The notes beneath the pieces are model-generated. The model searched no databases and was not told the DNA's origin. It worked only from the letters and a program-made list of their open reading frames with translations. The position numbers and the translations under genes are program-made. Positions 59,199 through 60,183 of a DNA stretch of 64,000 bases are shown in pieces (the first letter of the stretch is position 1; the number at the start of each line of letters is the position of its first letter). The stretch lies in the NCBI RefSeq assembly GCF_056746865.1, contig NZ_CM163382.1. One strand, given 5' to 3'.

Positions 59199-60183
59199 AT
59201 GCAGATAAAACGCTCGATTGAGAAAATCCCGGGGGGGGATGATGCTCGTCCCGCTATTCCTTGGCGCACTGTGCCACACCTTCTCGCCGGAGGCGGGGAA
59301 ATATTTTGGATCATTCACCAACGGGATGATTACCGGTACGGTGCCCATTCTGGCGGTGTGGTTTTTTTGCATGGGGGCGTCAATAAAATTAAGCGCGACG
59401 GGAACGGTATTACGTAAATCCGGTACGCTGGTGGTAACAAAAATTGCCGTCGCGTGGGTGGTTGCGGCAATTGCCTCACGCATTATTCCGGAACATGGTG
59501 TTGAAGTTGGATTCTTTGCCGGACTTTCAACGCTGGCGCTGGTGGCGGCGATGGATATGACCAACGGCGGACTTTACGCTTCCATCATGCAACAGTACGG
59601 CACAAAAGAAGAAGCTGGGGCATTTGTGTTGATGTCATTGGAGTCCGGGCCGCTCATGACGATGATTATTCTGGGCACTGCCGGGATTGCCTCATTTGAA
59701 CCGCATGTTTTCGTCGGCGCAGTATTACCGTTCCTGGTGGGCTTTGCCCTTGGGAACCTTGACCCTGAATTACGAGAATTTTTCAGCAAAGCGGTGCAGA
59801 CGCTGATTCCATTCTTTGCCTTCGCGCTGGGCAATACCATTGATTTGACTGTAATTGCCCAGACAGGTTTGCTGGGGATCCTGTTGGGTGTGGCAGTAAT
59901 TATCGTGACCGGTATTCCGTTGATTATCGCCGATAAATTGATTGGCGGTGGCGATGGCACTGCCGGAATTGCCGCTTCCAGTTCCGCAGGGGCCGCGGTA
60001 GCGACACCTGTGCTGATTGCTGAAATGGTGCCTGCGTTTAAACCGATGGCTCCGGCAGCAACTTCGCTGGTTGCGACGGCGGTCATTGTGACTTCGATTC
60101 TGGTGCCAATTCTTACCTCTATCTGGTCACGTAAAGTCAAAGCCAGAGTGGCGAAAATCGAAATTTTAGGCACGGTAAAATAA
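59199..60183 (+). CDS. kdgT: 2-keto-3-deoxygluconate permease KdgT, with an apparent +1 frameshift in a G8 tract (59231-59238) after codon 13
   Basis: [13 protein letters not shown] encoded from ATG 59199; the remainder (MMLVPLF..., 314 aa) is in the +1 frame from 59239; together 327 aa. Confidence 0.75.

Follow-up and report, generated by a model that had tools for sequence, protein, structure and literature searches.

The kdgT gene of the window, that is, of the whole 64-kb stretch of E. coli DNA analysed here, is broken close to its start by a single extra G in a run of G residues. Very probably this is a genuine +1 insertion that was created by replication slippage and has been inherited vertically, and the gene is a recent pseudogene that has probably lost its function. 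Judged by its sequence, the locus is a pseudogene of the KdgT family and not a functional member of it as annotated.

Reading frame of kdgT

The features of the kdgT region are as follows.

59041..59044, plus strand: run of four A (A4) in the sodA-kdgT spacer; A5 in K-12, 746 and M7424, the 1-bp deletion being derived
59060..59078, plus strand: putative KdgR operator AATAAAACAGTGTTTCAAT 5' of kdgT, assigned by pattern match
59188..59193, plus strand: AGGTGA, candidate native Shine-Dalgarno box of kdgT, 5 nt 5' of ATG 59199; predicted duplex with the 16S 3' tail, -3.8 kcal/mol
59199..60183, plus strand: kdgT (2-keto-3-deoxygluconate transporter) pseudogene with a +1 frameshift after codon 13
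59199..59417, plus strand: frame-0 reading, 13 native and 59 out-of-frame codons with TAA at 59415-59417; predicted truncated peptide of 72 aa
59218..59220, plus strand: TTG in frame with the downstream piece, hypothetical start of a 321-aa product; no upstream Shine-Dalgarno box, predicted pairing with the anti-Shine-Dalgarno sequence +0.4 kcal/mol
59231..59238, plus strand: G8 homopolymer, ancestrally G7; the additional G shifts the frame
59239..60183, plus strand: remainder of kdgT in the +1 frame, codons 14-327 and the stop at 60181-60183; fully open, starts with ATG ATG

The sequence around the tract is ...GAG AAA ATC CCG GGG GGG G ATG ATG CTC..., and the ancestral G7 tract spans the last base of the Pro11 codon CCG and the GGG codons of Gly12 and Gly13. 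From ATG 59239 the +1 frame comprises 314 codons, begins with MMLVPLF and, together with the 13 codons upstream of the break, adds up to 327 codons. The 72-aa peptide of frame 0 has no match in a Pfam profile search.

The tract of kdgT is the sole run of at least seven G or C in the 64 kb. Only three G or C runs of six or more bases are present, compared with about 23 expected (an estimate from base composition alone). Long G/C runs are thus depleted in the window, and the G8 run of kdgT stands out.

The region 59236-59252 may fold into a hairpin (GGGATGATGCTCGTCCC) formed by pairing of the last three G of the tract with CCC at 59250-59252. This hairpin, a match of the terminator scan only, would enclose both ATG codons and could limit internal initiation.

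Gene identity and ancestral allele

The kdgT gene of K-12 MG1655 (b3909) has G7 at the equivalent site. Removal of one G from the gene in the window restores an ORF of 984 nt, which differs from K-12 in 21 nucleotides (97.9% nucleotide identity) and two amino acids (G31E, A317V). No nucleotide distinguishes the repaired gene from the intact allele WP_001166045.1 found in strains 746 and CB7453, and both amino acid changes relative to K-12 are already present in that allele. Thus the lesion is a length change in a mononucleotide run and there is no other; since nothing else in kdgT has decayed, the frameshift is recent.

The first-pass annotation of this DNA had described a G8 run at 59231-59238 causing a +1 frameshift, and every coordinate and the codon arithmetic in it are correct. 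It had also proposed that a single extra G explains the break, and had suggested a comparison with other E. coli kdgT alleles as a check. This comparison bears the proposal out: one deletion gives the full-length ORF, K-12 has G7, and WP_001166045.1 differs from the window by one G only.

The repaired 327-aa product scores 385 bits with the Pfam profile PF03812 (cut-off 25; residues 3-312) and 615 bits with the NCBIfam equivalog TIGR00793 (cut-off 453.8; residues 1-314). The neighbouring genes rhaT, sodA, kdgT, yiiM and cpxA follow in the same order as in K-12. What the gene of the window lacks, as a member of the KdgT family, is an uninterrupted ORF for the whole protein, as its frame breaks after codon 13.

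The pattern AATRAAAYRNYRTTTYAWT, which we take to represent the KdgR box and which we used to assign the operator at 59060-59078, has exactly one match in the 64 kb on both strands, the one upstream of kdgT. The equivalent position in K-12 also matches. Intact E. coli kdgT genes, in K-12 and as the allele WP_001166045.1 in phylogroup-D-like strains, have the same sodA-yiiM locus and the same upstream pattern as the gene of the window; they differ from it in having G7 instead of G8, and only the latter has a frame break after codon 13. As far as can be judged from these motifs, the regulatory region of kdgT appears intact. A consensus scan for sigma-70-like sites upstream of kdgT yielded no candidates, but the scan was strict and its result is therefore uninformative. 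The distance from the A4 run in the sodA-kdgT spacer to the putative KdgR box downstream of it is 16 bp.

The G8 allele in E. coli genomes

The comparison set consisted of 5,426 complete E. coli genomes, of which 5,424 match the 75-bp stretch. Tract lengths were counted from exact matches of 73-90-bp queries by identity band, where one difference moves a match below the 99% band. An exact 75-bp match with G8 is present in 153 of the 5,424 genomes. The A59291 SNP of the window accompanies it in 101 of these 153, and 52 genomes have G8 on a K-12-like background. The longer region of 1,051 bp that includes G8 is 100% identical in at least 40 complete genomes.

Four clone-mates with G8, from the USA, Japan, Norway and Pakistan, are 1-3 SNPs from the window over 24.8 kb, and two further ones (Mexico, Italy) have one difference from it over 3-6 kb. 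In all six, the RefSeq annotation of the identical interval is a kdgT pseudogene described as "frameshifted". The sources among the matches listed for this region include human, poultry, pig, wild-bird and water.

One of the G8 genomes is named "O15:H18 strain ST69". In a study of ST69 wastewater isolates (PMC7952442), the closest matches to ST69 contigs include several of these G8 genomes. Given this name and these matches, the clone, which is phylogroup-D-like, is most probably ST69.

At least 60 genomes contain the allele of the window with G7 in place of G8, the identity being 100% over 1,050 bp. Some of these (746, Ecol_316) belong to other lineages with flanks diverged by 0.3-0.9%. The clone-mate M7424, which also has G7, differs from the window by 4 SNPs per 24.7 kb. 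A local SNP tree could not place the G7 clone-mates, as there are too few SNPs (0-3 per 41 kb), and for this reason the genomes were ordered by the A4/A5 indel in the spacer and a SNP in sodA. The A4 run at 59041-59044 is common to the G8 clone and its closest G7 relatives, the A5 strains being K-12, 746 and M7424. A subset of the G8 clone carries the C>T substitution in sodA. The combination of A4 and sodA-C with G7 is represented by four records from three strains (CB7453, B1.H1.1, B1.H1.18). Between one of them, CB7453, and the G8 strain 2017C-4173W12, the single G is the only difference in 41,051 bp. The query combining sodA-T with G7 has zero exact matches, and the one combining sodA-T with G8 yields 50 records.

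The simplest series of alleles requires no reversal: A5/G7 (M7424, 746) gives rise to A4/G7, then to A4/G8 (the window), and finally to A4/G8/sodA-T. On this simplest ordering, the three A4/G7 strains would be basal rather than revertants, although the local data are compatible with their being revertants. The uniform G8 of the sodA-T subclade (50 of 50) and the series without reversals point to stable vertical inheritance, not to fast phase variation. Indeed, G8 occurs in many independent assemblies of one clone.

The sodA substitution, at the position equivalent to 58339 of the window, is present in about half of the G8 clone (the same 50 records), whereas the window has the ancestral C. It changes residue 7 of SodA from Ser to Phe (MSYTLPFLPY), and thus the protein from WP_001297064.1 to WP_001547048.1.

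Tract length in E. coli and in other species

The lengths of the tract in complete E. coli genomes, from exact matches of 73-77-bp queries, are distributed as follows.

G6: 169 genomes
G8: 153 genomes
G9: 5 genomes
G10 (in-frame): 0 genomes
remainder: about 5,100 genomes, G7 in every one sampled

The G6 genomes are spread over unrelated lineages and include a cluster of 2018 accessions from the same batch (CP027xxx). Two assemblies of the laboratory strain C600 disagree, with G7 in CM181231.1 and G8 in CM132660.1. This discordance, together with the scattered and batch-related G6 genomes, suggests that the tract is often miscounted in long-read assemblies, and much of the scattered G6 and G8 variation is probably long-read homopolymer error, inseparable here from real events.

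All five G9 genomes come from mice. Over 6 kb, no SNP separates the mouse isolates M8 (G8) and RSHH22 (G9), nor the mouse isolates 8178 (G8) and DEF10 (G9). Between the pairs the divergence over 6 kb is 2.3%, and they thus represent different lineages. These differences look like real tract changes; they could stem from genuine step-by-step growth of the tract once the gene was inactive, from selection against KdgT in the mouse gut, or from an error at the level of reads.

The tract is an indel hotspot whose length has changed in several other E. coli lineages (G6, G8, G9). This pattern agrees with mutation accumulation data from E. coli, where the indel rate rises exponentially with homopolymer length and G:C runs of 7-8 bp are hotspots (PMC8510543); the supplements of that study make no mention of kdgT.

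The comparison outside E. coli covered 80 homologous loci in other Enterobacterales species and, in addition, one bin of Selenomonadales. The N-terminal pattern M-x-I-K-[RQK]-x-I-[ED]-[KR]-[IVL]-P-G-G-[ML]-M-L is retained in every locus. However, the codons for Pro-Gly-Gly contain G runs of only 2-3 in 77 of the 80 species. Among the remaining three, one Superficieibacter reaches G6, and E. whittamii and Escherichia sp. E1V33 are the only ones with G7. From this comparison of sequences, the long G run seems to be confined to Escherichia and to be an accident of codon choice. Since the tract is not conserved between species, there is no sign of selection maintaining it, which argues against a designed contingency locus.

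Alternative explanations

The first-pass annotation had offered, without a choice among them, a homopolymer sequencing error, a genuine slipped-strand mutation, either inactivating or phase-variable, and reinitiation of translation at the ATG ATG at 59239 as possible explanations of the break; the second of these is supported, apart from its phase-variable form. It is extremely improbable that the strain truly has G7 and an intact kdgT, with the additional base being a sequencing or assembly error. Runs of G are miscounted by long-read assemblies, as seen from the scattered G6 genomes, many of them from the CP027xxx batch, and from the two assemblies of C600, and clone-mates with G7 do exist. 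However, G8 together with the same allele is common to 101 complete genomes, including six clone-mates from six countries, and the window is only 1-3 SNPs per 24.8 kb away from four of the G8 genomes. The sodA-T subclade is G8 without exception, and thus miscalling of the tract is rare in this clone. In addition, one study set holds both G7 (CB7453) and G8 (CB8671). Thus the G8 of the window is almost certainly not an assembly error. It is also improbable, if somewhat less so, that kdgT is a phase-variable contingency locus whose tract switches the gene reversibly at a high rate, the window having captured the OFF phase. The tract does set the frame and is found within 40 nt of the start of the ORF, like classical slipped-strand switches; G6, G7, G8 and G9 are all found in E. 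coli; G7 and G8 occur in genomes otherwise identical over 41 kb; and two unrelated mouse-associated lineages each have both G8 and G9 with 0 SNPs in 6 kb. On the other hand, technical error probably accounts for some of the scattered variants, the in-frame G10 occurs in no genome, and the run is not conserved, being 2-3 G long in 77 of 80 other species. Classical contingency tracts of bacteria with functional mismatch repair are also longer than 7-8. At the level of the clone, phase variation is unsupported, as the sodA-T subclade contains no G7 at all and the series of alleles needs no reversal.

If the insertion is real and stable, as we believe, a working transporter might still be produced by initiation at ATG 59239 or 59242 or at TTG 59218, or by +1 slippage of tRNA-Gly, but we consider this unlikely. 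The downstream ORF of 314 codons is intact and starts with ATG ATG. The predicted pairing of the G run with the anti-Shine-Dalgarno sequence (-10.6 kcal/mol) is stronger than the 5th percentile for all ATG codons of the window (-6.5). A product starting at TTG 59218 would recreate the GGMM motif, and a run consisting entirely of G allows tRNA-Gly to re-pair perfectly in the +1 frame. However, the G run is only 0-3 nt from the ATG codons, or about 5 nt if just its 5' Gs pair, and TTG 59218 is not preceded by a Shine-Dalgarno box. Further, the 13 lost N-terminal residues are conserved in all 80 homologues, none of which starts at MM, and are included in both the Pfam and the TIGR00793 profiles. 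Being conserved in the cross-species alignment, the residues that would be missing from an internally initiated product are under strong constraint. A search for a solved structure of the KdgT family on which the role of these 13 residues could be judged found none. As for slippage on the ribosome, the codon following the run in frame 0, GAT, is common, so that no pause driving a +1 shift is to be expected; and as at least 5,000 genomes have the ancestral, in-frame gene, the site is not a programmed frameshift. Repair of the frame in mRNA would require deletion of one nucleotide from the transcript, and such deletions are rarely associated with homopolymers in E. coli (PMC5574713).

Comparison with known systems

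The closest analogues of the gene in the window, as we interpret it, are homopolymer-slippage pseudogenes labelled "frameshifted" by PGAP. Such genes have the same insertion of a single base in a run, a premature stop, an otherwise intact sequence and clonal inheritance. Nothing essential differs in kdgT; it is unusual only in that the same tract varies in other lineages.

The contingency genes of Neisseria, Haemophilus, Campylobacter and Bordetella resemble kdgT in having a poly-G tract near the 5' end of the ORF that sets the frame and is polymorphic in length within a species. Unlike these, the tract of kdgT is short (7-8), is not conserved outside Escherichia, and is stable in a subclade of 50 records, and what kdgT encodes is a cryptic catabolic transporter instead of a surface antigen or a restriction system. 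Of the properties expected of a contingency locus, location of the tract within the ORF was found, whereas frequent reversal among close relatives and conservation of the tract were not. A related idea is that the Escherichia-specific G7 run acts as a de facto contingency site, with loss of KDG uptake repeatedly selected in gut-adapted or extraintestinal clones (ST69, the two laboratory-mouse lineages) and reversible by contraction of the run. This too seems unlikely.

A programmed +1 frameshift was considered and rejected, as the in-frame arrangement is the ancestral and the majority state and none of the 80 homologues from other species departs from it. The all-G slippery site and a predicted Shine-Dalgarno-like pairing are both present at the tract. 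As in frameshifting of the prfB type, the run re-pairs perfectly in the +1 frame and is overlapped by a G-rich element resembling a Shine-Dalgarno box. In contrast to the prfB type, there is no slow codon or stop codon in the A site, GAT not being rare, and the shifted arrangement is not conserved.

Origin and consequences of the insertion

The extra G probably arose when the strands slipped and mispaired as the G7 run for Pro11-Gly12-Gly13 was being replicated. The insertion would have happened once and recently, within one phylogroup-D-like clone, most probably ST69, and would then have been passed stably to about a hundred sequenced descendants, the window strain among them. Ribosomes that start at ATG 59199 are predicted to leave the frame after codon 13 and to stop at 59415-59417, so that the conserved transporter of 10-12 helices would not be made from the normal start. 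Presumably, uptake of external 2-keto-3-deoxygluconate (KDG) is lost or much reduced.

KDG that is made in the cell from hexuronates does not need KdgT. In most settings a cell without the transporter should thus be at little disadvantage, which fits the spread of the insertion in a successful clone. The role of KdgT is to import external KDG, and it is repressed by KdgR (PMC4784465).

Other differences near the locus

Several other differences between the window, its clone-mates and related strains were observed in the vicinity. In the region corresponding to approximately 48523-49213 of the window (9374-10064 of L006), the clone-mates have a YiiG-family pseudogene, annotated as frameshifted and lacking the N-terminus, and the window is identical to them there. 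The clone-mates have no frvRXBA operon, which in strain 746 is located between yiiG and a carbohydrate porin gene; its absence looks like a deletion specific to the clone. At approximately 39150-40330 of the window (1-1178 of L006), a truncated hypothetical gene and a transposase gene adjoin yiiE in the clone-mates, which suggests that an IS has inserted at the border of the fdo/fdh region.

In strains 746 and M7424, a P2-like prophage encoding an integrase, Cox, a replication endonuclease, a portal protein and a terminase is situated directly 3' of cpxP (L010 24865-41050 and L012 24871-28943, equivalent to the region beyond approximately 63830 of the window). In the G8 clone-mates of the window, cpxP is followed by fieF.

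Relation to earlier data and implications

The frameshift in kdgT is already flagged in public annotation, where NCBI PGAP labels the gene as "frameshifted" in the clone, and in this respect it is an ordinary case. A full-text literature search on the G tract of E. coli kdgT, combining frameshift, pseudogene, homopolymer, ST69 and mouse gut, found no reports. The nearest matches concern kdgT of Bordetella (an A/T tract), a mutation in the sodA/kdgT intergenic region, and the biology of KdgR. Two points are mildly new: most members of one major clone can be recognised by the frameshift, and several other lineages, two from laboratory mice among them, show a changed length of this tract, which is specific to Escherichia.

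For annotation, the kdgT locus of the window should be called a frameshifted pseudogene, being neither a gene nor an assembly error. The eighth G is a one-base marker that separates most of a successful human and animal clone of E. coli from its nearest relatives. More generally, the length of the kdgT tract has to be checked before frameshift calls from long-read assemblies are either trusted or dismissed, and calls made in single genomes need the reads. Finally, should the recurrent expansions of the tract, especially in mouse-colonising lineages, prove to be selected, KDG uptake would seem to be costly in the gut.
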